32,000 nt of DNA, taken from assembly GCA_963704755.1 (NCBI GenBank), contig OY969938.1, forward strand, positions 3,810,001 to 3,842,000, in the 5' to 3' direction. This stretch comes from an uncultured Chloroflexia bacterium (lineage in GTDB: Bacteria; Chloroflexota; Anaerolineae; Anaerolineales; Anaerolineaceae). This document shows, one piece after another, positions 1,762 to 32,000 of the stretch. A program made the translations under genes and the position numbers. Position 1 is the stretch's first letter. Each line of letters opens with the position of its first letter. The notes beneath the pieces are model-generated. The model did not search any database. It was not told where the DNA came from and saw nothing but the letters and a program-made list of their open reading frames with translations.

Positions 1762-2048
1762 TAAAACAAACAACCTTCCGCCTCTATGAGGACGAAAGGT
1801 TATCTTCCGCGGTACCACCTCAATTCGTAAGCAATTATGGCTTACGCTCTCGTTCCCGGACGATCATCCGGGTTACGCGTTAACGGGCTTACCCGTACCG
1901 GTCTACTCTCCCAAGGAGGGATTTCTTCGGTAAATGAGCCAAACGACTTCAGCCGCTGCATTTGCTGGGGAGGTTTTCAGCCGGTGACGCTCCGTCTCTG
2001 TCAGCCTACCAGGGGCTTACTCCTTTTGGCGGGAGTGGATATTCGATT
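1762..2048 (-). promoter_or_regulatory. T-box riboswitch leader with valine specifier codon GUC
   Basis: Read on the minus strand. Stem I is closed by GCCAAAA (2030-2024) / GUUUGGC (1944-1938). The specifier loop has AGUA on the 5' side and GAA-GUC-G on the 3' side (GUC = 1947-1945). Also present are an AGAGA bulge, F-box CCGUUA (1886-1881) and the T-box sequence GGUGGUACCGCG (1819-1808), followed by a terminator. It lies directly upstream of valS. Confidence 0.85.
1772..1801 (-). terminator. intrinsic terminator of the T-box leader
   Basis: Minus strand reads AACCUUUCGUCCUC-AUA-GAGGCGGAAGGUU (13 bp with one bulged U), followed by GUUUGUUUU (1771-1762). Its 5' arm overlaps the T-box antiterminator region. 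Confidence 0.8.
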
Positions 2049-2104: not shown

Positions 2105-2167
2105 GAATCCCGAAAAAGAGGCATTTGCGGTGGCTTCGCCACCGCAAATGCCTCTTTTTCGGGATTC
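2105..2167. terminator. perfect 29-bp-arm hairpin, bidirectional intrinsic terminator architecture
   Basis: GAATCCCGAAAAAGAGGCATTTGCGGTGG-cttcg-CCACCGCAAATGCCTCTTTTTCGGGATTC, with no mismatch. The inner 16-bp stem is flanked by A5 upstream and T5 downstream on both strands. It lies between the VOC gene 3' end and the valS promoter. Confidence 0.8.
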
Positions 2168-2641: not shown

Positions 2642-2692
2642 AAAATGAAATTCCCAGGCTATACGTGGATTTCACTACCGACCTGTGCTAAA

Positions 2693-2845
2693 AAGGAGAC
2701 CCACGCAGGTGGGTCTTTGTGTATTTGTAGGTGCAGCTTTAGCTGCCACGGCCTTCGAAAGCCGGGCTTCGCGTGGGCTTATGCCTGCCGGCGACCGAGG
2801 TCGCTGCAACAAAAACACGAAGACCCACCTGCGTGGGTCTCAACC
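2693..2845. repeat. foldback (MITE-like) element, copy 1 inside the tandem array
   Basis: The ~40-bp inverted termini match at about 38 of 43 positions: AAGGAGACCCACGCAGGTGGGTCTTTGTGTATTTGTAGGTGCAGC vs the reverse complement of GCTGCAACAAAAACACGAAGACCCACCTGCGTGGGTCTCAACC. They include 20-nt palindromes at 2697-2716 and 2821-2840. Confidence 0.75.
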
Positions 2846-2982
2846 ATTTACGAGGAGCGCGACGTGACCCGGTTTTCAAAGGTGCGAGGACAGGAGAGGC
2901 TTGGACGGTGTAGCTCGGGTTTCGAACCCGAGAAAAGCGCCGGGGAAACAGTATCTCGTCTCCGGGGCCGACTTATGCTGAA

Positions 2983-3135
2983 AAGGAGACCCACGCAGGT
3001 GGGTCTTTGTGTATTTGTAGGTGCAGCTTTAGCTGCCACGGCCTTCGAAAGCCGGGCTTCGCGTGGGCTTATGCCTGCCGGCGACCGAGGTCGCTGCAAC
3101 AAAAACGCGAAGACCCACCTGCGTGGGTCTCAACC
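2983..3135. repeat. foldback (MITE-like) element, copy 2
   Basis: Identical to copy 1 except for one substitution (A to G in AAAAACACGA / AAAAACGCGA). Palindromes at 2987-3006 and 3111-3130. Confidence 0.75.
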
Positions 3136-3272
3136 TTTTACGAGGAGCGCGACGTGACCCGGTTTTCAAAGGTGCGAGGACGGGAGAGGTTTGGGCGGCG
3201 TTGCTCCGGTTTCGAACCCGAGAAAAGCGCCGGGGAAACAGTATCCCGTCCACGGGGCCGACTTATGCCGAA

Positions 3273-3330
3273 AAGGAGACCCACGCAGGTGGGTCTTTGT
3301 GAATTTGTAGGTGCAGCTTTAGCTGCCACG
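3273..3330. repeat. foldback element, truncated copy 3 (left terminus only)
   Basis: Matches the copy 1/2 left end through GCTGCCACGG with one mismatch (GTGAATTTG), then diverges. Confidence 0.7.
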
Positions 3331-3346
3331 GGCCAGTCCAGAAGGA

Positions 3347-3389
3347 CCGGGGTTTTTATTGGGTGCGAAGCACCCAATAAAAACCCCGG
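3347..3389. repeat. perfect 19-20-bp-arm hairpin just 3' of the VIT1-family gene
   Basis: CCGGGGTTTTTATTGGGTG(C)-gaa-(G)CACCCAATAAAAACCCCGG. The T-tract lies in the 5' arm and the A-tract in the 3' arm, so it is not a canonical stem-plus-U-tract terminator. Confidence 0.8.
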
Positions 3390-3426
3390 TTTCTCCATAG
3401 TAGCTGAGTTTTTACAGGCGTCTCAT

Positions 3427-4599
3427 TTATCCAACGACCGGCCCAAAAAGGATCCCCAGCCCGTAGGTGATTAGGGCTTCGCCCAGGCCGATGACGGTCA
3501 TTTCGCCACCACTCTTCCAGGGGCTCAGGCCGGTCACCACCGTCTTGGCGGCGCCGATCAGGAAGTGCGATAATGTGCTTATCCCGAAGGAAATGATGAT
3601 GGCCGGATAGCCGTGGGTGAAGAAGAACGGGATGATCGGGATGAAAGCACCTGTGGCAGTCGATAGTGTGGCCGAAATAGCCGCAACCCAGGGATTGGGG
3701 AAGGACTCTTCGGAAAGGCCCAATTCTTCGTTGCCCAGGGTTTTGAGCGCCGTCTCGGGTTGGGCGATCAGGTGAGCGGCCAATGTTTCGGCTTCTTCTT
3801 TGGGTACACCTTTGAGCTGGTAGAACAGGGACAGTTCTTCCTGCTCTTCTTCGGGGTGTTCCTGCAATTCCTCGCGCTCCCGGCGGAATTCGGCTTCCTG
3901 GACTTCACGCTCGGTCTTGGTGGCCAGGTAGGCACCCGAGCCCATCGACAGGGCCGAGGCCATCATGCCGGCCAGCCCGGCGATCAGCACGGCCGGCCCG
4001 CCGGCGGTTGCGCCGGCAACACCGGTGACGATCCCGAAGACCGAGCCCAGCCCGTCGTTAGCGCCGTAAATAGCCTGGCCGATCCAGCCGCCGCCGTGCT
4101 GGTGCCAGCTTTCGCGGTGCAGGATCGTGTCGAGCTGGGCCTGCGGGCTGCCGGCGATCGGGCCGGCGCTCATGGTGTTGTTTTTGTTCATGGCACCGCT
4201 GTGCATTTCTTCATCGTGCAGCACGGCCTTGACCGCGGCGCGGTCTTCTTCAGTCGGTGCGATGGCGGCCATATCCTCATACATTTCGGTGTCGTCATCT
4301 TCATTGCTCTCGATGCGCTTGAGGGCGTTATCGGTGCCACTCTGGACCAGCACCCAGCGCCAGACGCGTTCGCCGAGGGTTTCTTTTTCGGACGGGACTT
4401 TGGCCCCCAGTTCTTGCAGGCGTTTCGACCAGCGTCCACCGTGACCGCTCTCGGCTTCGGCCAGGCTGAGTAATACCTGCCGGCGGGCTTCATTGGTCTC
4501 TCGTTTGGCCAGGTCTTGATAAATTCGCTGGCTGGCGCGTTCTTTGCGTAATGCTATCTGTAAGCTTTTGATAAATTTAGATTGGTTGTTAGATTCCAT
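3427..4599 (-). CDS. VIT1/CCC1-family iron/manganese transporter with N-terminal ferritin-like (rubrerythrin-like) domain
   Basis: N-terminal ferritin-like helices (ERASQRIYQDLAKRE...EAESGHGGRW, HDEEMHSGA). The C-terminal membrane domain carries GANDGLGSVFGIVTGVAGA, typical of VIT1/CCC1. I start at ATG 4599 (MESNNQ), preceded by AGGAGAAG, rather than at the track's GTG at 4620. Confidence 0.8.
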   Translation of the reverse strand: MESNNQSKFIKSLQIALRKERASQRIYQDLAKRETNEARRQVLLSLAEAESGHGGRWSKRLQELGAKVPSEKETLGERVWRWVLVQSGTDNALKRIESNEDDDTEMYEDMAAIAPTEEDRAAVKAVLHDEEMHSGAMNKNNTMSAGPIAGSPQAQLDTILHRESWHQHGGGWIGQAIYGANDGLGSVFGIVTGVAGATAGGPAVLIAGLAGMMASALSMGSGAYLATKTEREVQEAEFRREREELQEHPEEEQEELSLFYQLKGVPKEEAETLAAHLIAQPETALKTLGNEELGLSEESFPNPWVAAISATLSTATGAFIPIIPFFFTHGYPAIIISFGISTLSHFLIGAAKTVVTGLSPWKSGGEMTVIGLGEALITYGLGILFGPVVG

Positions 4600-4643
4600 A
4601 TTCTTCTCCTGAAAAAACACTCGCGCCGGGACAAATGCTTCTT

Positions 4644-4689
4644 ATTATGAGGCGTTTGCGGGTCTATGGACCCGCAAACGCCTCATAAT
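4644..4689. repeat. perfect 21-bp-arm hairpin (TTTGCG...CGCAAA family)
   Basis: ATTATGAGGCGTTTGCGGGTC-tatg-GACCCGCAAACGCCTCATAAT, with no mismatch. Confidence 0.85.
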
Positions 4690-4977
4690 TGGTTCTCCCC
4701 GCAGATATGTCGATGGGGCGTATTATCCCGTCACAGGGTTAATTAAATCACAAGTTGGCGAATGGAGTGGAAATGAGATTGGAGAGATTTTAGTGAGACT
4801 GGTCTGGTGATTTTTCGTCTCTTTACCTTCCTTCGGCGAGAAGGAGTTAAGCAAGATGATTCCAAATTTAACTTTGGGATAGTTTCTGTATATGGGGGCA
4901 TTTGGTTTTCAAATCCGTTTTATTAAAAATAAAAACCTACTGTCATTTGCTTTCGAAGCTCCATTCTGGCATTGCAA

Positions 4978-6754: not shown

Positions 6755-6962
6755 TTGGTAAAGAGAGAGTAGATAATAGTAATAAGGCGATAAGGCGATG
6801 AGGCGATGAGGCGATGAGGCAACGAGGAAATGAGGCGATAAGGCAACGAGGCGATAAGGCAACGAGGCGATAAGGCAATGAGGAACGAGGGTGTCACCTC
6901 ATTACCTCATTACCTCGTTGCCTTGTTGCCTTATTACTATTCTCTACTCTCCATTCTCTGCC
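6755..6962. repeat. foldback repeat element R2 (octamer array with heptamer-type arms)
   Basis: Thirteen tandem 8-bp units at 6782-6885 (ATAAGGCG, ATGAGGCG, ACGAGGCG, ATAAGGCA and similar). Five inverted units at 6897-6936 (CCTCATTA x2, CCTCGTTG, CCTTGTTG, CCTTATTA). The arms are GAGAGTAGATAATAGTAA (6765-6782) and TTACTATTCTCTACTCTC (6934-6951). Confidence 0.9.
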
Positions 6963-8311
6963 TTCTCCACCTTCTCCGCCTTTTCTCCATCCCCAATTCC
7001 CAGGGGTTTCCATTTATCCTGGTTGGCGCGCAGGCGGTGTTGGCCGCCGCCGCGATTGTGCAGCAGGTCGAACCCTTCGGGTTTGATGAACATTTCTTCG
7101 CCATCCAGCAGTCCGGTCAGGCCGGACTGGCCGGGTTCGGGACGCTTGTTCTGGCAATATTTGCAGGTTTTGGGGTCGTGGGGTTTGTAACTGACCGGCT
7201 CTTCGTAAGTGGTCACGTAGCCTTCGTAATTACGCAGAATCACCTTGTGGTCCGAGGCGCTGATCTGGTAATTGGGCATCACCGGGATCTTGCCGCCGCC
7301 GCCAGGGGCATCCACCACAAAGGTGGGCACGGCGTACCCGGAAGTGTGCCCGCGCAGCCCTTCGATGATCTCGATCCCTTTGGCCACCGGGGTGCGGAAA
7401 TGGCCCGCGCCTTCCACCAGGTCGCACTGATATAAATAGTAGGGACGCACGCGGATGCGTACCAGCTTCTGGACCAGCTCGCGTTGAATATGGACACAGT
7501 CGTTGATGCCGGCCAATAGCACCGACTGGTTGCCCAGCGGAACACCGGCTCGCGAAAGCCGGTCACAGGCGTCGGCTAGCTCCTGGGTGATCTCGTTGGG
7601 ATGGTTGACGTGGATATTCATCCACAAGGGATGGTATTTTTGGAGGGTATCGCAAAACTCCGCGGTGATGCGTTGGGGCATGAAGACCGGCACACGCGAG
7701 CCGATGCGGATGATCTCGATATGGGGGATCTCACGCAGGCGGGCCAGCAGCTCGTCCAGCAGCTTGGGCGCCAGGGTGAGCGGGTCGCCGCCCGAGAGGA
7801 GCACGTCCCGTACTTGAGGCGTGTTCTTTAAATATTCAATTTGTAAGTCGAAATCGTGGCGCGAGAAGTTGGCCGTCGGGTCGCCGACGATGCGCGAGCG
7901 GGTGCAGTAGCGGCAGTAACTGGCACACTGGGTGGTGACGAGCATCAGCACCCGGTCTGGGTAGCGGTGGACCAATCCGGGCACCGGGGAATGGCGGTCT
8001 TCGGCCAGCGAATCCTCCATCATGCCCGTAAACGGCGTGATCTCATCCGCGGTCGGCATGACCTGCAACCGGATCGGGTCGTTCGGGTCATTTGGGTCGA
8101 TCAGCGAAGCGAAATAAGGGGTGATATCTACCCGGAACAACCCTTGCGTGGATAATGCTTTTCTTTCACTATCGGTAAGGGGGAACAGCCGCTCGAATTC
8201 TTCGACGCTATTGAGGCGGTGGCTCAACTGCCAGCGCCAGTCATTCCATTTTTCGTCCGGTACATCTGCATAAACAGGGGCGCGCTTAGAAATAAAGGGT
8301 GTGGGGCTCAT
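6944..8311 (-). CDS. kamA: lysine 2,3-aminomutase (radical SAM, KamA family)
   Basis: CASYCRYCTRSR (CxxxCxxC) radical-SAM motif, a KamA-type N-terminus (EKWNDWRWQLSHRLNSVEEFERL), and SGGDPL. I start at ATG 8311 (MSPTPFISK) after AAGGAG. The last ~14 codons lie in repeat R2. Confidence 0.85.
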   Translation of the reverse strand: MSPTPFISKRAPVYADVPDEKWNDWRWQLSHRLNSVEEFERLFPLTDSERKALSTQGLFRVDITPYFASLIDPNDPNDPIRLQVMPTADEITPFTGMMEDSLAEDRHSPVPGLVHRYPDRVLMLVTTQCASYCRYCTRSRIVGDPTANFSRHDFDLQIEYLKNTPQVRDVLLSGGDPLTLAPKLLDELLARLREIPHIEIIRIGSRVPVFMPQRITAEFCDTLQKYHPLWMNIHVNHPNEITQELADACDRLSRAGVPLGNQSVLLAGINDCVHIQRELVQKLVRIRVRPYYLYQCDLVEGAGHFRTPVAKGIEIIEGLRGHTSGYAVPTFVVDAPGGGGKIPVMPNYQISASDHKVILRNYEGYVTTYEEPVSYKPHDPKTCKYCQNKRPEPGQSGLTGLLDGEEMFIKPEGFDLLHNRGGGQHRLRANQDKWKPLGIGDGEKAEKVEKAENGE

Positions 8312-8408: not shown

Positions 8409-8448
8409 TTTGTCAGGAACAAAAATTGCAGAAAAAGATTAAATATCG

Positions 8449-8559
8449 GTAACCGCTCAACCGCAAGGGTAAGGGCCTTGAAATTAGGTGCTCACAAGAG
8501 GTTCGCCCCCTTTAACACCACAATTCCGGGAGCTGCACAGCACGGGCTTGAGCAGATAC
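8449..8559. repeat. 111-bp nested-palindrome element, degenerate copy
   Basis: GTAACCGCTCAACCGCAAGGGTAAGGGCC...GCTTGAGCAGATAC aligns end to end with the 19605-19716 element. The central hairpin is decayed. Confidence 0.65.
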
Positions 8560-8879
8560 AAATATTGTATGCTTTATTGTAATCATTAATAGCGCTAATT
8601 CTATAATCGAGCCAAAAGTCGTTTATGAATTTGCGTTATGAAGTTATTGTACGAACAAATAAATCTGAGGTCAATCAGAAAAATCGAGGGATCAGGGGAA
8701 TTGCATCATGAATTAGTCTGCGATAATAATTTTTGTGGTGTGTACTTCCAGAAGAACGTCTCGCAGCGACACTTACCCGCCTTCGAAAAGAGGAACACAA
8801 GGCTGGATAGGTTGTCCGAAAGGAGCCGCGTATGCCCTGGTGGAGATACGTTCGTGTAAACTCGCCAGCAACGCTGCTT

Positions 8880-9008
8880 ATTAAATTAACGTCAATTCGG
8901 GATAAGAATTTTTTAGTGTGTTTTTATTCGTGGCGGCGCAGCCGCCACGAATAAAAACACACTAAAATTACCTTTCTTTTCTTTCATCCCGAATTCAAGT
9001 TAAATTAG
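8880..9008. repeat. nested palindrome containing a perfect 27-bp-arm hairpin (8911-8967)
   Basis: Core is TTTTAGTGTGTTTTTATTCGTGGCGGC-gca-GCCGCCACGAATAAAAACACACTAAAA, perfect. The outer arms are TTAAATTAACGTCAATTCGGGATAAGAA / TTCTTTCATCCCGAATTCAAGTTAAATTA, imperfect. Confidence 0.85.
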
Positions 9009-9010
9009 AA

Positions 9011-9062
9011 TCGAACCGGCCCTGGACCTTATGGGTTGGCATGGGGTCCGGAGCCGGTTCGA
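9011..9062 (-). terminator. hairpin 3' of the PNPOx-family gene
   Basis: TCGAACCGGC (9011-9020) pairs with GCCGGTTCGA (9053-9062), plus GGACC/GGTCC. On the minus strand it is followed by a T-rich TAATTTAAC. Confidence 0.5.
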
Positions 9063-13526: not shown

Positions 13527-13567
13527 ATGTGGAATGTTCCGGCACCTCGTGCCGGGCCATTCCACAT
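13527..13567 (+). other. imperfect 19-bp-arm hairpin between dnaK and dnaJ
   Basis: ATGTGGAATGTTCCGGCAC-ctc-GTGCCGGGCCATTCCACAT with 2 mismatches and no U-tract. It may be an attenuator or processing site. Confidence 0.5.
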
Positions 13568-15702: not shown

Positions 15703-15757
15703 TTTCAGCGGATAAAAAAAGAAGCGGCCCAGCCGCTTCTTTTTTTATCCGCTGAAA
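15703..15757. terminator. perfect 26-bp hairpin, bidirectional terminator between convergent prmA and lspA
   Basis: TTTCAGCGGATAAAAAAAGAAGCGGC-cca-GCCGCTTCTTTTTTTATCCGCTGAAA. The inner GC stem is flanked by A7 and T7 on both strands. Confidence 0.85.
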
Positions 15758-17727: not shown

Positions 17728-19039
17728 TATGGCTTTCTCAAGAAAGGGATTTACCAGCCAGAAGGAGGGCAAAAGCCTGGGAGAGGTGGCCCTCGAACCA
17801 GCGGCGGCCTTTGGCAGCATTGGAAAAGCCTGCCCGCTTGAGCAAGCCAAGAATCAAATTATGAATAATTGCCAGGATTCTTCCGGCCGGACCAATCGTC
17901 ATTCGAGTGGCATCCTCATGAAACGTCACATCGCGACGATAATGCAGCCCAGTCTCAATTTGCCAGTGTTGGCGACGAATGCGGAGCACCTTACCCGGAG
18001 CAGCTTGCTTACGAGATAGGCTGGTAATGCCATACTCAACTTCACAGCTATTTCTGTAGAATTGACCCTGGCGCAACCAAAAAAACTTACGTTCCAGACG
18101 ATAAACCTGGCTCAACCCCGGCCAATCCAGATATTCATTCAGCATTTCACTGGTCTGGATGGCACGGATTTCCAGGCGACCGTGACCATAACTCACCTGC
18201 TTTGCAGTCTGGAAATCGGTCGCAATCTTGCCAAATCCAGGCTTAGGATGATCAGGAGCAAACAAGTCTTGGATGGCTTGATACATTTGGGGTTGATTTT
18301 CCTTGACCGGCCACAAATAATCCCCTTGGCCTTTGAGAATTTGTTCGGAAACGGCCCGTTGGGTGTGCATGGCGTCTCCGGTGACGATTTTCCCGGACAA
18401 ATTGACCCGTTCCAAGGCTTTAGGAGCTGCTACAATCTCGTTTTCCTTGTTTCCAACCACTTCTTGAACCTTGACTTGCTGGGTTTGGCCAGCATAAATA
18501 CTCAAAACATACTCACCGCAAAGTTCTCCACCAGCCCGTGTGCCTCGCAAGGCTTTGCCGTCCATGGCCAATGTTTCTCCACTTTCATCTGTATCCGACC
18601 GATGGTACGCTTCCATCAGTCGTTCAAACTCCTCTTCGCTGACAATATTCTGGAATACGCGTCGGTAAGTATTGTGATGGGGCATCCAACTTCGCTGCAA
18701 CCCCAATAACTGTGTCAACTCTTCTGCCTGGTTCTTCGCCCAATCGGCTATTTCCACCGGTCGATCTTTTCCGCACAGTTTCGCCAGAAAGATTAATACT
18801 AACAAGGTGACTAGGCTATACCGTTTCCCCTTCGCTTTGCGTGGATCATCTAGCCGTTGAAAATAGTCATACAAGCTCCCCAGCGAATACACAACCCCAT
18901 TTGCACTTTCTTCTTGCCACGGTTCCAGCGTGCTATACTCCATCTTGATCCTCCTCGGTTATTTTGGCTGTTTGGCGACACCAATTGTACCGAAGAGGGT
19001 CTTTTTGTCTATCTGTCAACCTTTCTTGAGAACGCCATA
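17728..19039 (-). mobile_element. ISAs1-family insertion sequence, 1312 bp, apparently intact
   Basis: The 20-bp terminal IRs are TATGGCTTTCTCAAGAAAGG (17728-17747) and CCTTTCTTGAGAACGCCATA (19020-19039), 19/20 complementary. They are flanked by a perfect 10-bp direct repeat GAGAGGCGTG (17718-17727 and 19040-19049). Confidence 0.9.
17738..18943 (-). CDS. ISAs1-family DDE transposase (H-repeat-associated type)
   Basis: N-terminal DDPRKAKGKRYSLVTLLVLIFLAKLCG, then MDGKALRGT, TGDAMHTQRAV and HWQIETGLHYRRDVTFHEDATR. These correspond to conserved blocks of ISAs1/YhhI-type transposases. Confidence 0.9.
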   Translation of the reverse strand: MEYSTLEPWQEESANGVVYSLGSLYDYFQRLDDPRKAKGKRYSLVTLLVLIFLAKLCGKDRPVEIADWAKNQAEELTQLLGLQRSWMPHHNTYRRVFQNIVSEEEFERLMEAYHRSDTDESGETLAMDGKALRGTRAGGELCGEYVLSIYAGQTQQVKVQEVVGNKENEIVAAPKALERVNLSGKIVTGDAMHTQRAVSEQILKGQGDYLWPVKENQPQMYQAIQDLFAPDHPKPGFGKIATDFQTAKQVSYGHGRLEIRAIQTSEMLNEYLDWPGLSQVYRLERKFFWLRQGQFYRNSCEVEYGITSLSRKQAAPGKVLRIRRQHWQIETGLHYRRDVTFHEDATRMTIGPAGRILAIIHNLILGLLKRAGFSNAAKGRRWFEGHLSQAFALLLAGKSLS

Positions 19040-19350
19040 GAGAGGCGTGGGCTACCGCTGCGCTCCGCACTTAATCCCGCGCTGCTGGCGGGTGGAACTT
19101 ACCACCACCTCCCGTTCTCCCAGGGGAGAATGTTGGGATGAGGGTAAAAGCTGGCTAACCCGGGCGGAAAAGGGACTATTGAAAGCCTGGCTTTACGAAG
19201 GAGAAAAAATAAAAACACCACTCTTTTTTACGGTAGCCGAGCAGTTTCGAAATATATTTATAAGGTAACTACTTCAACTTCTTAACCGGCCAGAGCAGTT
19301 ACTTTATAAGTACCCTCTCACCTTACGGTAGAATCAAAGCGAGGAGCGCC

Positions 19351-19584
19351 ATGCAAAACCTGGAAACATTAGGACGCTGGATATTGATCATTGGAATCAC
19401 GATCACAGTCGTGGGTGGATTGGTTTGGGTTTTGGGTAAGCTGACCGGGCTGCGCTCTTTGCCGGGGACACTCAAACTCGAATTTTCAGGGGTGACCTGC
19501 CTGATCCCTATTCTGGGCTCGATCGTGTTGAGTGTCCTTTTAACGGTGGTGCTCAACCTTGTTCTTCGCTGGCTCAACCGTTGA
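19351..19584 (+). CDS. DUF2905 family small membrane protein
   Basis: 77 aa. LIIGITITVVGGLVWVLGKL...LPGTLKLEFSGVTCLIPILGSIVLSVLLTVVLNLV matches the DUF2905 pattern. GAGGAG SD. Confidence 0.75.
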   Translation: MQNLETLGRWILIIGITITVVGGLVWVLGKLTGLRSLPGTLKLEFSGVTCLIPILGSIVLSVLLTVVLNLVLRWLNR

Positions 19585-19604
19585 GCCGCGAGACAGCCTC
19601 TTTC

Positions 19605-19716
19605 GTAACTGCTCGGCCAAACGGGTAAGAACCCAGAATTTGAGGTGTTTGCGAGGGCGAAGCCCTCGCAAACACCTCAAATTCTGGGAATCTTTGATAG
19701 GAGCCTGAGTAGTTAC
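19605..19716. repeat. 112-bp nested-palindrome element, intact copy (perfect 27-bp-arm core hairpin at 19632-19688)
   Basis: GTAACTGCTCGGCCAAACGGGTAAGAA + CCCAGAATTTGAGGTGTTTGCGAGGGC-gaa-GCCCTCGCAAACACCTCAAATTCTGGG + AATCTTTGATAGGAGCCTGAGTAGTTAC. The termini are inverted. Confidence 0.9.
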
Positions 19717-19920
19717 CTTTTTTCTAGCTAAAATTATTGCGTGCACACCCACCCCCGGCCCTACCCCTCGAGGGGCGGGGAGAAAGAGAAAAGGGGGTGT
19801 TTTTAAGGCACTTTGCGCCTCCAAAACACTCCCAAGAGAGCGGAGACCATGACAGCGGCTTTTATCACCCGGCAGGCGGGCCTGAATATGGTAAACTAGT
19901 GAGTTGTCCGGAAAGTAATT

Positions 19921-19969
19921 TTTGAGTGTTTGTTTTGGGTGTCAAAGACACCCAAAACAAACACTCAAA
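19921..19969. repeat. perfect 23-bp-arm hairpin upstream of the PRTase gene
   Basis: TTTGAGTGTTTGTTTTGGGTGTC-aaa-GACACCCAAAACAAACACTCAAA. Confidence 0.85.
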
Positions 19970-20003
19970 GGGATTTCCGCATCATCCAGCTAGGAGAACA
20001 ACC

Positions 20004-20558
20004 ATGACCGATCAGCGAGAAACATACACCATCGAGCTGGCTGGCTTGCCTCGCCAGTTGACTTTGTTCGAGGTAAAGCCGGGTTTGAAAATCGCATTAC
20101 TGAATATCCTGGGCGATACGGAACTGGTGGAAGCCTGCGCCAACGCCCTGGTCGAGAAGACCCGCTCCAGCGACTACGCCGTAATCGTCACTGCCGAGAC
20201 CAAGAGCATCCCTCTGGCGCACATCCTGTCACTCAAGACCAACAAACCCTACGTCGTTTTGCGCAAGAGTTACAAGTTCTATATGGGCCGGGCGCTCAAA
20301 GCCGATACCCTATCGATCACGACCGGCGCCCCCCAAACCCTGTTTCTGGACGAAAAAGACCACGAATTGATCCAGGGCCAACGGGTGATGATTCTGGATG
20401 ATGTGGTCAGCACCGGCTCAACCCTGGAGGGCATGCGTGCTCTGATGAATCAGGCCGGGGCGATCATCGCTGTCGAAGCAGCCATCTGCACCGAAGGGGA
20501 CGATGATGCCTGGAGCGAGATCGTGGCTTTAGGACACCTGCCGCTGTTCACCGAATAG
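20004..20558 (+). CDS. phosphoribosyltransferase family protein (adenine/purine PRTase-like)
   Basis: PRPP-binding motif VMILDDVVSTGSTL. I start at ATG 20004 (MTDQRETY) after TAGGAGA. The track's start at 19926 would read through the 19921-19969 hairpin. Confidence 0.75.
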   Translation: MTDQRETYTIELAGLPRQLTLFEVKPGLKIALLNILGDTELVEACANALVEKTRSSDYAVIVTAETKSIPLAHILSLKTNKPYVVLRKSYKFYMGRALKADTLSITTGAPQTLFLDEKDHELIQGQRVMILDDVVSTGSTLEGMRALMNQAGAIIAVEAAICTEGDDDAWSEIVALGHLPLFTE

Positions 20559-20563
20559 ATAGT

Positions 20564-20616
20564 CCCGAATTTAGGTATTTGCGGGGGCTTGGCCCCCGCA
20601 AATACCTAAATTCGGG
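20564..20616. repeat. perfect 25-bp-arm hairpin between the convergent PRTase gene and galK
   Basis: CCCGAATTTAGGTATTTGCGGGGGC-ttg-GCCCCCGCAAATACCTAAATTCGGG. Confidence 0.85.
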
Positions 20617-20651
20617 GTTCTGCCAAGTTGGGCGCAGTTACAGGGGGATTG

Positions 20652-23973: not shown

Positions 23974-25126
23974 ACCACGGATCTTATTCCTTTTTTCGGA
24001 TACCGGCGGCGGCCATCGTAGCGCGTCCGAGGCCATCATCGAGGCGATCAACCTGGAATTCCCAGACCAGATCAAAACCGAGATGGTGGACATCTTTTTG
24101 CAATACGGCCCTCCGCCAATCAACCTGGCACCGCGAATTTACCCAACCCTCTCGCGTATGCCCAATATGTGGGGCTGGGGTTACCGCATCAGCGATAATC
24201 CGCGCCGTACACGGGTGGCCTATTCGATGTTGTGGCCATACGTACGCCGCTCACTGGACCGGCTGATCGTAGAACACCCCTCTTCCTTAATTGTGTCGGT
24301 GCACCAATTGATCAACAACCCGGTGTCTCACATTGCCGCCAAATACCATATTCCCTTTGCGACGGTGGTGACCGACCTGGTCTCTACTCATGCGGCCTGG
24401 TATTGCAACCGGGCCGCGCTGGTTGTCGTTCCAACGCTGGCGGCTCAACGGCGGGGTTTGGAAGCCGGTTTGCGGCCGGAGCAGATGCGCCTGGTCGGCC
24501 TGCCGGTGGCGGAGCGTTTTCGCCAGGTTGGAGAAGACCGGTTCGCCCTGCGCGAGCGGCTAGGCTGGCGCCAGGACCTGCCGGCGGTGGTGCTGGTGGG
24601 TGGCGGAGAGGGCATGGGCCCATTGGGTGACATGGCCCGCGCGATCAACCAGGCCTGCCTGCCCTTGCAAATGATCATTGTGGCCGGGCGCAACCAGGCC
24701 CTGCATACCCAGCTCGAAAATTATTCCTGGAACATCCCGGTCAAGGTGTATGGATTTGTCCGCAATATGCCCGATTTCATGCAGGCGGCGAACGTGCTGG
24801 TCACCAAAGCCGGTCCGGGTACGATCAGCGAAGCCTTTATCGCCGGTTTGCCGATTATTCTCTACAGCCGGCTGCCCGGTCAAGAAGAGGGCAACGTCGA
24901 TTATGTGGTGGACGAAGGAGCCGGTATCTGGGCACCGGAACCACGCAAAGTTGTGGCCGCCTTGCAGAACTGGCTGGATCACCCGGATGAGCTTCAAAAA
25001 GCTTCGCAGACCGCGCTGCATCTGGCCAGGCCGGACGCTGCGCGCCAGATCGCCAGGCTGCTGGTGGAGAAGGCCGTGGTGCCTCAAAATAAAATGTTAC
25101 TTTGGGATAATCGTTGCCTCAAATAG
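23945..25126 (+). CDS. MGDG-synthase-type glycosyltransferase (GT28 family)
   Basis: PRILFLFSDTGGGHRSASEAI at the N-terminus and a GT28-like C-terminal domain (VTKAGPGTISEA). The start is GTG 23945 or ATG 23951. The last 17 codons from 25075 (VVPQNKMLLWDNRCLK plus the stop) are encoded by the IS terminal repeat. Confidence 0.8.
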   Translation: MKMSPTLGNKPRILFLFSDTGGGHRSASEAIIEAINLEFPDQIKTEMVDIFLQYGPPPINLAPRIYPTLSRMPNMWGWGYRISDNPRRTRVAYSMLWPYVRRSLDRLIVEHPSSLIVSVHQLINNPVSHIAAKYHIPFATVVTDLVSTHAAWYCNRAALVVVPTLAAQRRGLEAGLRPEQMRLVGLPVAERFRQVGEDRFALRERLGWRQDLPAVVLVGGGEGMGPLGDMARAINQACLPLQMIIVAGRNQALHTQLENYSWNIPVKVYGFVRNMPDFMQAANVLVTKAGPGTISEAFIAGLPIILYSRLPGQEEGNVDYVVDEGAGIWAPEPRKVVAALQNWLDHPDELQKASQTALHLARPDAARQIARLLVEKAVVPQNKMLLWDNRCLK

Positions 25127-26368
25127 AAATGTTACCGGAGAATTCTTAACAATTGATTGACCTTTTTATTGATACTGGCCTGTAAGGACACAGGGTTCAG
25201 ATGAACATATTGGGCAGTAAGACTGGCCTTGACTTTCAGGGGAAGAGAGTCCTGGGCTAAGACCCGGCGATAGGGGGTCTTGGCCAGATCATACTTACGG
25301 ATCGTCTTGCCGTCAACGGTTTCTTTAGCAATCAGTTTGAGAACTGGCTGGAAAAAATTGATGTAAAGACGCAAATCGGAGTAAATGGATTTGAGCAAGG
25401 CAAGTTCTTGTGGGGTTTCGAAGCGGTCATAGCCAATGGTATGTCGAACAACCGACCAATTCTTCTGTTCCACATGAGCCTGATCATTCTTGTGGTAAGG
25501 CCGCGAACGCGTAAAGGTAATGAGTTCGCTCTGGCAGTATCGCAAAAGTGTATCGTTGATGAATTCACTGCCATTGTCTGAATCCAATCCCAAAAGAGGA
25601 AAAGGCAGGTTATGGCGCAATTCCTCAATGGCTTGAGAGACAGCTGTCTGGGTTTTGTTGGCCAGGCCCAGGCACTCGGTCCAGCCGGTGGCTAAATCGG
25701 TTGCAGTGAGGGTATTGAGGTAGGTACCCTCGGTGGTTGTACCACAATGGGCCACCAGGTCGATTTCCAGAAAGCCTGGCTTCTCGTCCTCCCAAGGGGT
25801 AAAGGTGCGGATGGGAATGGCTTGTTTGAGCAAACTGCCCGGTTTGGTAGTCCCAAGCCCACGTGGGGTGGGGGCGAGGCGTGCCTTTTTCAAACAGCGA
25901 TCTATGGTGGCCCGGCTCAAGCTCAACAAAAGCGCTTTGGTTTCCTCGCTCAACTCTATTTCCTGCCAGCGCTCTAAAACATCCACCATTTCAGGAATAA
26001 AAGGCTGTAGTCGTTTTGAGCAGATGCACCCACTAACTTCCCAAATCTTTTCCAGAGCCACGACGACTTCCCCGTTGTATTTCTTCCGTCGCCCGGCTTT
26101 CTTCAACCCCTTTGGCTTGGAACCATGCTTCAACAGCCGAATAGCGTATTTACGATGATATCCGCTTGTGGCGATAAATTCATCCAGAATCTGTTTCTTC
26201 TCGGCTTTCCTGGCTTTCAAATAGCGCGGACGAATGCTTTCTAGCATCTCCCGCCGACTGCGTTGACTCATCATGAGCTCCCTCTGCGGTGCTTTATTCC
26301 GCGTTAGGGTAACATTTATTTTGAGCCAACGTTATTTCGCAAAGTAAGATTAATTGTGAGGCAATTCG
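25075..26368 (-). mobile_element. insertion sequence with rve-type DDE transposase (IS481/ISNCY-like), about 1.29 kb
   Basis: The ~55-bp imperfect terminal IRs are at 25080-25136 and 26308-26363. Each holds two copies of a TGCCTCAAAATAAAATGTTAC-like motif. A candidate 5-bp TSD AAGGC sits at 25070-25074 and 26369-26373. The exact ends are uncertain by a few bp. Confidence 0.75.
25132..26274 (-). CDS. DDE integrase-core (rve) transposase
   Basis: N-terminal HTH region, then EIDLVAHCG (D), GLDSDNGSEF (D) and HVEQKNW (E), with about 35 residues between the second D and the E. Confidence 0.85.
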   Translation of the reverse strand: MMSQRSRREMLESIRPRYLKARKAEKKQILDEFIATSGYHRKYAIRLLKHGSKPKGLKKAGRRKKYNGEVVVALEKIWEVSGCICSKRLQPFIPEMVDVLERWQEIELSEETKALLLSLSRATIDRCLKKARLAPTPRGLGTTKPGSLLKQAIPIRTFTPWEDEKPGFLEIDLVAHCGTTTEGTYLNTLTATDLATGWTECLGLANKTQTAVSQAIEELRHNLPFPLLGLDSDNGSEFINDTLLRYCQSELITFTRSRPYHKNDQAHVEQKNWSVVRHTIGYDRFETPQELALLKSIYSDLRLYINFFQPVLKLIAKETVDGKTIRKYDLAKTPYRRVLAQDSLPLKVKASLTAQYVHLNPVSLQASINKKVNQLLRILR

Positions 26369-28906: not shown

Positions 28907-29017
28907 ATTACTGCTCAGCCAAACGGGTAAGAACCTCGAATTTGAGGTGTTTGCGAAGAATTCGTCTCCGCAAACACCTCAAATTTAGAAACTTCCTGCA
29001 AAGGACTGGGCAGTTAA
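28907..29017. repeat. 111-bp nested-palindrome element, slightly decayed copy
   Basis: ATTACTGCTCAGCCAAACGGGTAAGAACCTCGAATTTGAGGTGTTTGCGAAGA-attcg-TCTCCGCAAACACCTCAAATTT...GGACTGGGCAGTTAA. The left ~50 bp match 19605-19655 with only a handful of mismatches. Confidence 0.85.
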
Positions 29018-31353: not shown

Positions 31354-32000
31354 AAATTAGTCCGGCCTGGTGGAAGGAATGGCGAGAAGACTCGGTGTTG
31401 CGCAGGGTACTGCGTAACACCGGTTATATGTTAAGCGGAAATGTCCTCACCACCGGGATGGCGGCCGTACAGAGCATTCTGGCCGCCAGAATTTTGGGCA
31501 CAGAGATGTTCGGCGTCCTGGGTATTGTGACCAGCTTTGCCAGTACGATCAATCGCCTCTTTTCATTTCGTATGGGCGAGATGGTGGTCAAATACCTGGG
31601 CGCAGCGCTGGCCGAGGATGAGAAGGAGAGAGGCGCAGCGATTGTCAAGCTGGCCGGCCTGGCCGAGGGGATCACTTCGATCATTACCTTCGTCGCCCTG
31701 GTCCTCCTGGCACCTTTAGCGGCCCGCTTCCTGGCCAAAGATATCTCCTATAGAGATATTTTTATCTTTTATGGCATCTTCATCCTGGGCAATATCGTCA
31801 ATGAGACTTCTACCGGCATCTTGCAGGTAGGCGGCCATTTCCGCAGCCAGGCGGCCCTAAACGTGGGCAGCAGTGTGCTGACCCTGGCCATTACAATCAT
31901 CGCGATGATTTCCGGCAGCGGATTGTCGTTGATCGTCACGGCCTACCTGTGCGGCAAGTTGGTCGTCGGAGTTGGCATTATGGTCCTGGCCTGGGTCCGC
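31350..32000 (+). CDS. polysaccharide biosynthesis/MOP-family flippase, N-terminal 217 codons (continues beyond the window end)
   Basis: Manual translation from ATG 31350 (ATGA overlap with the epimerase stop) gives MKISPAWWKEWREDSVLRRVLRNTGYMLSGNVLTTGMAAVQSILAARILGTEMFGVLGIVTSFAS... It is open to position 32000 with multiple TM helices. The window end truncates it, so it is not in the ORF track. Confidence 0.7.
   Translation, partial: MKISPAWWKEWREDSVLRRVLRNTGYMLSGNVLTTGMAAVQSILAARILGTEMFGVLGIVTSFASTINRLFSFRMGEMVVKYLGAALAEDEKERGAAIVKLAGLAEGITSIITFVALVLLAPLAARFLAKDISYRDIFIFYGIFILGNIVNETSTGILQVGGHFRSQAALNVGSSVLTLAITIIAMISGSGLSLIVTAYLCGKLVVGVGIMVLAWVR

Follow-up and report, generated by a model that had tools for sequence, protein, structure and literature searches.

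Bacterial MITEs (miniature inverted-repeat transposable elements) include Correia/NEMIS in Neisseria, ERIC/IRU in enterobacteria, and RUP in Streptococcus pneumoniae. They are about 100 to 150 bp long and non-coding, occur in many intergenic copies, carry terminal inverted repeats (TIRs) and target-site duplications, form long hairpins, and give rise to deletion derivatives. We analyzed a 32,000-nucleotide (nt) stretch of DNA from an uncultured Anaerolineaceae bacterium (contig OY969938.1, positions 3,810,001 to 3,842,000; hereafter the window), which carries a set of long, perfect hairpins. We consider it likely that most of these hairpins are the centers of non-coding MITEs of about 111 bp that are spread through the Anaerolineae, and that their arms are kept alike by template switching. 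The family has all the features of the bacterial MITEs listed above, but differs from them in a central 53 nt that is free of mismatches, in arms that co-vary, and in a loop that flips freely. It is a new MITE family of Anaerolineae, and the kind of element is already known. No earlier description of such a family was found among the ten best-ranked matches in the literature on MITEs of Chloroflexi/Anaerolinea.

Other described systems resemble parts of this picture. REPINs share with the family their extragenic palindromic doublets, long hairpins, abundance, and compensatory changes; such changes across the REPIN hairpin are common and have been attributed to selection (PMC3116915). However, REPINs are thought to be moved by a Y1 transposase without TIRs or target duplications, and the MITE family has both. 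In quasipalindrome correction, template switching homogenizes the arms of inverted repeats and inverts their spacers, and the conservation of perfect inverted repeats exceeds what neutrality predicts (PMC5941160, PMC7202029, and PMC8604942). Homogenized arms and an inverted spacer are also found here. That work dealt with single loci or short dispersed repeats, whereas here the signatures recur in a single mobile family with hundreds of copies, whose TIRs are not homogenized and provide an internal control. Bidirectional intrinsic terminators share a GC-rich stem, A- and T-rich flanks, and placement at gene ends with some of the hairpins (15703, 2105, and 20564). However, the MITE arms are far longer than a terminator needs, and they are dispersed repeats that also lie in promoter-side intergenic regions.

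An inverted-repeat scan of the window found eight mismatch-free hairpins, with arms of 21 to 30 bp and loops of 3 to 4 nt. Together with one imperfect hairpin, the long hairpins are as follows.

2105-2167: perfect hairpin, 30-bp arms
3346-3390: perfect hairpin, 21-bp arms, loop GAA
4644-4689: perfect hairpin, 21-bp arms, 4-nt loop
8911-8967: perfect hairpin, 27-bp arms, loop GCA
15703-15757: perfect hairpin, 26-bp arms
19632-19688: perfect hairpin, 27-bp arms
19921-19969: perfect hairpin, 23-bp arms, loop AAA
20564-20616: perfect hairpin, 25-bp arms
28939-28985: imperfect hairpin, arms 95% complementary with 5 arm mismatches, apex decayed

All positions listed in a preliminary description of this DNA were recovered, including the slightly decayed hairpin at 28939. 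The arms at 2105 are 30 bp rather than 29 bp, and the hairpin given at 3347 is real, but it starts at 3346 and its arms measure 21 bp, not 19 bp. By an arithmetic estimate, the chance expectation for such palindromes in 32 kb is below 1e-7. Folded as single-stranded DNA, the perfect hairpins have z-scores of -9 to -14.5 relative to shuffles. The same scan found two weaker hairpins, at 13527 (after dnaK) and at 9011. Rfam returned nothing for the window hairpins at the gathering threshold, and only spurious microRNA matches at an E-value threshold. A simple terminator scan was of no help: with the T tracts buried in the long stems, it flagged just two sites, 4645 and 19968, as terminator-like. 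The window is ordinary chromosome, with the hrcA-grpE-dnaK-dnaJ-prmA cluster among its genes. Its PrmA is 72 to 76% identical to those of the closest relatives, and the relatives that have a source name are Bellilinea.

The preliminary description had united all nine hairpins in one superfamily. Five of them belong together: 2105, 4644, 19632, 20564, and 28939 share the core GAGGYRTTTGCG...CGCAAAYRCCTC, as had been seen, and match a family profile hidden Markov model (HMM) with E-values of 2e-9 to 9e-24. Two further copies, found by nhmmer and by a search for the terminal repeats, had been missed, so that the window carries seven family copies in various states of decay. What had been noticed before was only the inner 53 nt of an element of about 111 nt with TIRs and target-site duplications. 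To build a consensus, copies were oriented by their slightly asymmetric flanks. It reads, in order, GTAACTGCTCAGCCATGnGAAGAAAGTTG, CCGAATTTGAGGTGTTTGCGGGTGC, ttc, GCACCCGCAAACACCTCAAATTCGG, and GTCTTTTTCACAnGGGCCTGAGCAGTTAC, and shows 12-bp TIRs (GTAACTGCTCAG / CTGAGCAGTTAC) and conserved outer arms. The layout is a TIR, an asymmetric outer arm of about 17 nt, two 25-bp arms around a 3-nt loop, an outer arm, and a TIR. In most family copies the central 53 nt form a mismatch-free palindrome, and the family consensus has GTCTTTTTCAC and CAACTTTCTTC next to it on its two sides. The modal length of 111 nt is too short to encode a transposase, and the element has no coding capacity.

The insertions duplicate 8 bp of the target. 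In 22 full-length copies out of 79, the 8-mers on the two sides are the same (for example, AAATCCCT, GACTCCTC, GAAATAGT, and TAAAATAG), and in 45 they agree at no fewer than 6 of 8 positions. As a control, the next 8 nt outward never matched at more than 4 of 8 positions. The terminal-repeat search also found copies whose center is deleted and whose ends and duplication are intact. With TIRs and 8-bp target-site duplications, which mark DDE-type transposition by cut-and-paste or copy-and-paste, the element is a classical MITE and neither a plain terminator nor a unit of the REP/RAYT kind. The earlier suggestion of a mobile unit related to REP (repetitive extragenic palindromic) sequences thus holds as to mobility, but not as to a REP/RAYT nature. 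We also considered whether the arms could be the ends of a larger insertion sequence. This was rejected, because the solo arms expected in that case are absent; all 14 apparent ones are paired copies with indels or copies cut by the end of a locus.

The family is abundant. We scanned species-representative genomes (one per prokaryotic species) with the pattern GAGGYRTTTGCG-N9-15-CGCAAAYRCCTC and found at least 84 loci, compared with less than 1 expected by chance (arithmetic estimate), and at least 120 stretches in metagenomes. A single Anaerolineaceae metagenome-assembled genome (MAG), DAIQPZ01, supplied about three quarters of the listed species-representative loci (about 62 of the first 80), and the rest came mostly from other Anaerolineaceae or Chloroflexota MAGs. 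Seven of the listed matches lie outside the phylum; their arms are short, and the family flanks are absent. The 1.3 Mb of Anaerolineaceae DNA that we examined hold 319 family copies. The subfamily pattern of the window lineage, GCCAAACGGGTAAGAACCNNNAATTTGAGG, had no match in the metagenomes. About 78% of family loops read GAA or GGA on one strand. The family apex GC-GAA-GC (for example, at 3361-3375 and 19654-19666 of the window) matches the DNA mini-hairpin d(GCGAAGC), which is very stable.

The seven copies in the window are listed here.

19605-19716: full-length MITE of 112 nt, with TIRs GTAACTGCTCGG / CTGAGTAGTTAC and the inner hairpin 19632-19688 (nhmmer 19603-19717, E=9e-24, model positions 2-115)
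28907-29017: full-length MITE of 111 nt, between the UDG and UDP-glucose dehydrogenase genes (nhmmer E=1e-22)
2103-2191: one-ended MITE, with terminal repeat GAGCGGTTAC ending at 2191 and the perfect hairpin with 30-bp arms, other end lost (nhmmer 2103-2193, E=2e-13, model positions 26-116)
20555-20641: one-ended MITE, with terminal repeat GCGCAGTTAC ending at 20641 and the perfect hairpin 20564-20616 (nhmmer E=2e-14, model positions 22-114)
4627-4697: core-only MITE remnant around the hairpin 4644-4689, no recognizable terminal repeats (nhmmer E=2e-9, model positions 19-90)
8449-8559: decayed full-length MITE of 111 nt, GTAACCGCTCAACC...CTTGAGCAGATAC, with flanks AAATATCG / AAATATTG (nhmmer 8448-8562, E=3e-4, model positions 3-115)
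19265-19302: internally deleted mini-copy of 38 nt, GTAACTACTTCAACTTCTTAACCGGCCAGAGCAGTTAC, with a perfect 8-bp duplication TTTATAAG (terminal-repeat search)

The 19605-19716 copy folds with -44.5 kcal/mol (z=-12.3), and its flanking 8-mers, CCTCTTTC and CTTTTTTC, are identical at 6 of 8 positions. It lies 20 nt downstream of an open reading frame (ORF) for a 77-amino-acid membrane protein (19351-19584, plus strand). The outer segment GCCAAACGGGTAAGAACC is common to this copy and the one at 28907 (a 76-nt direct repeat, D5). The 2103-2191 copy lies between the stop of a glyoxalase gene (2204, minus strand) and a promoter-like site at 2083-2055 on the minus strand, beyond which come a T-box leader and an aminoacyl-tRNA synthetase gene on that strand. 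Its neighbors are tandem minus-strand units rather than convergent genes. The 20555-20641 copy fits tightly between convergent genes for a phosphoribosyltransferase (plus strand) and a galactokinase (minus strand), as identified by Pfam, and the 4644 hairpin is just upstream of the start of a VIT gene. In the 8449-8559 copy, the inner palindrome has degenerated, and the folding is no better than that of shuffles (z=-0.23).

We compared the window with three syntenic loci of relatives, in which gene order is shared over 6 to 21 kb. None of the three has a family member, and none has a perfect hairpin with arms longer than 14 bp except the CIRCE operator. Therefore, all of the long window hairpins are lineage-specific gains.

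To examine how the two arms change, we counted base pairs across 49 copies, each of 111 nt, aligned without gaps.

Inner arms: 97.2% of cells paired, 81 changes on both sides, 12 wobble, 34 unpaired
Terminal repeats of the same 49 copies: 81.5% of cells paired, 12 changes on both sides, 31 wobble, 109 unpaired

In the inner helix, compensated cells outnumber uncompensated ones by 81 to 46, and in the terminal repeats the relation is reversed, with 12 to 140. The preliminary description had reported that differences between hairpins are mirrored in the opposite arm, and this holds family-wide. Its example stands as well: 19632 and 20564 are two substitutions and two 1-nt indels apart, every one of them mirrored. 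None of 500 shuffles reached the observed covariation. The 13 pairs that are free of the search pattern gave 54 compensated versus 29 uncompensated cells, and another count gave 93 versus 46. Variants that occur only once in the basal 8 pairs were compensated in 10 cases and not in 5. In some copies (L044, L082, and L075), the perfect palindrome is extended outward, with one outer arm mirroring the other in either direction, and these extensions involve several adjacent changes together. Loop orientation is random with respect to the asymmetric outer arms: among 64 robustly oriented copies, TTC and GAA occur 20 and 18 times, and TCC and GGA 6 times each. A tie between loop orientation and element orientation was rejected by this count. 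We see no sign of selection at the RNA level: the sense strand has 10 G.U-type mismatches and the antisense strand 11, and the orientation of the element relative to gene direction is not biased either (19 versus 25).

We identified 44 orthologous copies, in which the same insertion is present in the MAG and in JGI contigs (from metagenomes such as Ga0066793 and Ga0209429), with flanks that are 99.6% identical. Of these pairs, 27 are identical, and in 6 the loop of one copy is inverted relative to the other. The rate of difference per nucleotide is 14.7% in the loop and 0.42% in the flanks, a 35-fold excess. Between L199:88 and L043:5558, the inversion of the loop has carried a 1-nt bulge across to the opposite arm, and at pair 31/81 one copy has C-G where its partner has A-T. 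In the pair L077:4824 and L208:122, one copy is mismatched, and the other is perfect, with a non-consensus base on both arms. Loop inversion, transfer of a bulge, and a change on both arms between orthologues indicate that the changes were made in place. Related copies thus show both arm homogenization and spacer inversion, the marks of a template-switched inverted repeat, in copies that come from assemblies and not from reads.

We propose the following scenario. The element inserts with an 8-bp target-site duplication, and from this duplication we infer that a DDE-type transposase supplied in trans must move it. The arms of the inner palindrome change in a concerted way, at the level of DNA. 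While they are being replicated, the nascent strand may switch template from one arm to the other, which is the same process as in quasipalindrome correction. A change in one arm would thereby be either undone or transferred to the opposite arm, and the same template switching would invert the unpaired loop. The concerted outcome in the arms is observed, and template switching is the most likely mechanism, judging from the signatures it leaves. Random loop orientation and the loop inversions between orthologues fit template switching between arms. The preliminary description had offered selection on the structure or copying of one arm from the other. The complementarity does exceed chance, and it most likely reflects DNA-level templating of one arm from the other.

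Placement at 3' ends or between convergent genes, as claimed at the outset, is loosely true in the window, but the 19921 hairpin lies 36 nt upstream of a start codon and the 4644 hairpin upstream of the VIT start. For the family as a whole the claim fails. In the relatives, the family is strictly intergenic; the one copy of 97 that lies inside a called ORF is a window copy, and that ORF is spurious. Among 72 classifiable copies in the relatives, 47 lie between tandem, 17 between divergent, and 8 between convergent genes, in line with the 320, 74, and 70 of 464 background intergenic regions. Pfam verified real genes on both sides in 4 of 5 divergent contexts tested. The family is not specific to 3' ends, because copies occupy every type of intergenic region, including divergent ones; 15703, taken by itself, does have the location expected of a terminator.

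One alternative is that the hairpins are ordinary, often bidirectional intrinsic terminators, with perfect pairing due to selection for folding on two strands and a family likeness that is incidental. Most window hairpins do follow closely on a stop codon or separate convergent genes, the A-tract/stem/T-tract layout noted earlier is present at 2105 and 15703, and the flanks GTCTTTTTCAC and CAACTTTCTTC of the family consensus point the same way. However, convergence cannot give TIRs, 8-bp duplications, and hundreds of copies that share more than 100 nt. Divergent intergenic regions are occupied at background frequency (17/72 versus 74/464), the copies have no orientation bias relative to transcription, the sense strand shows no tolerance of G.U pairs, and the corresponding gene ends of the syntenic relatives lack the hairpins. 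We regard this explanation as unlikely for the family, and it stays the best one for 15703 alone. It is very improbable that the units are of the REP/REPIN type, mobilized in single-stranded hairpin form by a RAYT (a Y1 HUH transposase) and compensated under selection since the enzyme needs the hairpin. They are extragenic palindromes present in many copies, their arms co-vary, and compensatory changes in REPIN hairpins are reported to be common (PMC3116915). Yet perfect 8-bp target-site duplications and 12-bp TIRs flank the copies. A Y1 transposase, for which the preliminary description had proposed a search, is not found among the window ORFs, and no copy in the loci examined stands out as flanking a conserved gene, although no genome-wide search was made. 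REP/RAYT and IS200/IS605-type transposition are not known to make target-site duplications or TIRs.

A MITE whose inner palindrome is kept by selection, for transposition or for the host, and whose new variants spread as subfamily masters rather than arising in place, would explain why some compensated variants are common to many copies (GCTTAC apex, about 12; GTA, about 15), as inherited subfamilies are, and why decayed copies exist. It does not account for the orthologues of near-identical strains, which differ in place by loop inversion, bulge transfer, and a change on both arms. Selection on the hairpin also leaves the random loop orientation unexplained, and multi-nucleotide outward extensions of the palindrome occur in single copies. 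We think it improbable that selection without in-place change is the whole explanation. The same low probability goes to a different pair of proposals, namely that transposition runs through a hairpin intermediate resolved on either side, or that the units have been domesticated as the main portable bidirectional terminators or insulators of Anaerolineae. A hairpin intermediate would generate both loop orientations and regenerate the perfect palindrome at each move, in a way that can be likened to the flip-flop of parvoviral termini. A hint that single-stranded DNA hairpins may matter is that the apex matches d(GCGAAGC) and that about 78% of the loops are GAA or GGA. As for the host, it is a speculation from the sequence that copies lacking an end, with a perfect hairpin at a gene end (2105 and 20564), may act as bidirectional terminators or insulators; a side effect of this kind at these two sites is plausible. 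The hairpins might also serve as RNA 3' stabilizers, one of the roles first suggested for them.

Several observations weigh against a template-switched MITE moved in trans. The 1.3 Mb examined contain no autonomous element with these TIRs; a search there for elements of 0.06 to 4 kb with the TIRs and a duplication returned only small MITE variants. The insertion sequences of the window were considered as a parent and rejected, because the ends of the ISAs1-like element (17728-19039) and of the rve element (about 25084-26330) are unrelated. Most copies were ascertained with both 12-nt cores exact, which inflates pairing at those positions. The loop inversions between assemblies could be assembler choices or population polymorphism and not fixed differences. 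Compensated singletons may have siblings that were not sampled, since each genome was covered in part. Homogenization does not always win, as is plain from the decayed copy at 8449-8559 and the decayed apex of 28939. Selection on the hairpin could contribute as well, whether it serves as a substrate in transposition or has a function for the host.

IS66 offers a possible lead to the transposase. The terminal repeats of IS66 start with GTAAGCG and are accompanied by 8-bp direct repeats (PMC11946415). The MITE ends likewise begin with GTAA, and the duplication is 8 bp; a further point against our reading is that the MITE terminal repeat GTAACTGCTCAG shares only GTAA with the IS66 consensus. No IS66-type transposase was found beside these TIRs in the loci examined, and a genome-wide look for one was not made. 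The GTAAC...GTTAC ends and 8-bp duplications recur in small elements with other interiors at L047:3434-3524, L046:3497-3631, and L184:1568-1739 (91, 135, and 172 nt). The 91-nt element has its own hairpin, GGGGGGTGCGGGGTGTCTTGGGCGTGC-gaa, with one arm mismatch. Several MITE types are probably moved by one and the same transposase.

The four remaining perfect hairpins of the window, at 3346, 8911, 15703, and 19921, have no significant nhmmer match to the family HMM, which does not support the earlier view that 3346, 8911, and 19921 are diverged relatives. A search for their own relatives among all loci examined matched only the 17-nt apex of 3346. Their surroundings are as follows.

3346-3390: possible diverged member, 37 nt downstream of the stop of a VIT/rubrerythrin gene
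8884-9008: imperfect palindrome of about 125 nt, centered on 8911-8967, with outer arms TAAATTAACGTCAATTCGGGAT / ATCCCGAATTCAAGTTAAATTA; folding -43.2 kcal/mol, z=-13.6
15703-15757: bidirectional-terminator-like hairpin, A7 / GC-rich stem / T7, between convergent prmA (plus strand) and lspA (minus strand)
19921-19969: perfect hairpin, unassigned, 36 nt upstream of the ATG (20005) of a phosphoribosyltransferase gene

The 3346 hairpin shares with the family only its apex and TIR-like ends: its 15-nt apex GGGTGCGAAGCACCC is identical to the family apex, and its flanks (GTAGCTGAGTTTTTAC) resemble the terminal repeat. It is possibly a diverged family member. The 8884-9008 palindrome has a MITE-like architecture with a different sequence, and it is a single copy among the loci examined and therefore left unassigned. 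The 15703 hairpin is best read, from its layout, as an ordinary bidirectional intrinsic terminator and no member of the family.

Other repeats and structures surround these features. A lone remnant that resembles the right-hand terminal repeat (GGTAGCCGAGCAGTTTC) lies at 19232-19248, just before the mini-copy, and a decayed hairpin, GGGGGTGTTTTTAAGGC...GCCTCCAAAACACTCCC, lies at 19793-19833, between the MITE and the 19921 hairpin; the whole of 19200-19970 is a cluster of repeat debris. At 2678-3331 there is a 290-nt tandem repeat (2.25 copies, 95% alike, no Pfam match). Its unit bears a small hairpin, GGAGACCCACGCAGGTGGGTCTTT, in both orientations, and the 3346 hairpin follows 15 nt after the end of the array. 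Related structures of about 160 to 210 nt lie at 1604-1760 and 6757-6966. In each, short tandem repeats are followed by the same array inverted, which gives a long imperfect hairpin. The repeat units are GAGAATA/GAGAATG in the former and GATGAGGC/GATAAGGC in the latter, and the outer ends of the two structures are 82 to 88% alike (repeat families D6 and D7). The 1604-1760 structure sits between a T-box and its gene, and the 6757-6966 structure between the aldo-keto reductase and lysine aminomutase genes. The T-box leader (1785-2036, minus strand) is a full-length match with 81.2 bits and E=1.6e-17, where the Rfam gathering score is 93. It is upstream of a gene for a class I aminoacyl-tRNA synthetase (HLGH motif; 1 to about 1591, minus strand), which runs off the left end of the window. 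Because this gene occupies the minus strand there, the ORF at 455-1585 on the plus strand is spurious.

The ISAs1-like element (17728-19039; DDE_Tnp_1 and DDE_Tnp_1_assoc) has 20-bp terminal repeats, TATGGCTTTCTCAAGAAAGG, and the rve-integrase element (about 25084-26330) has ends with repeated TGCCTCAAAATAAAATGTTAC motifs; the syntenic relatives lack both. At 31392-31423, 39 nt after an epimerase gene, there is an imperfect hairpin of about 14 bp, TCGGTGTTGCGCAGGGTACTGCGTAACACCGG, which is unrelated to the family. The same MAG that is rich in the MITE also holds a second family of palindromic repeats, (GGTGAATCCCCG)CATTTTGGGGTGTGAGCGCGCGT followed by ACGCGCGCTCACACCCCAAAATG, which are mostly perfect and have loops of 0 to 4 nt (L004:520-565, L013:7108-7177, L049:6294-6339, L060:609-660, and L067:about 3880-3930).

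For annotation, the family means that hundreds of such hairpins per genome could pass for terminators, small-RNA genes, or regulatory palindromes, when they are really insertions. Perfect palindromes are also sites of assembly and polymerase mistakes. The presence or absence of an insertion, together with the orientation of its loop, could serve as a strain marker for the Anaerolineae of bioreactors and sediments. For the study of evolution, the copies are a large natural data set on the perfecting of palindromes and the inversion of loops, with the TIRs as a control and with orthologues that differ in place, and the family could be used to estimate template-switch rates outside model organisms. 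The perfect center of these MITEs is best explained by a mutational process that is already known.

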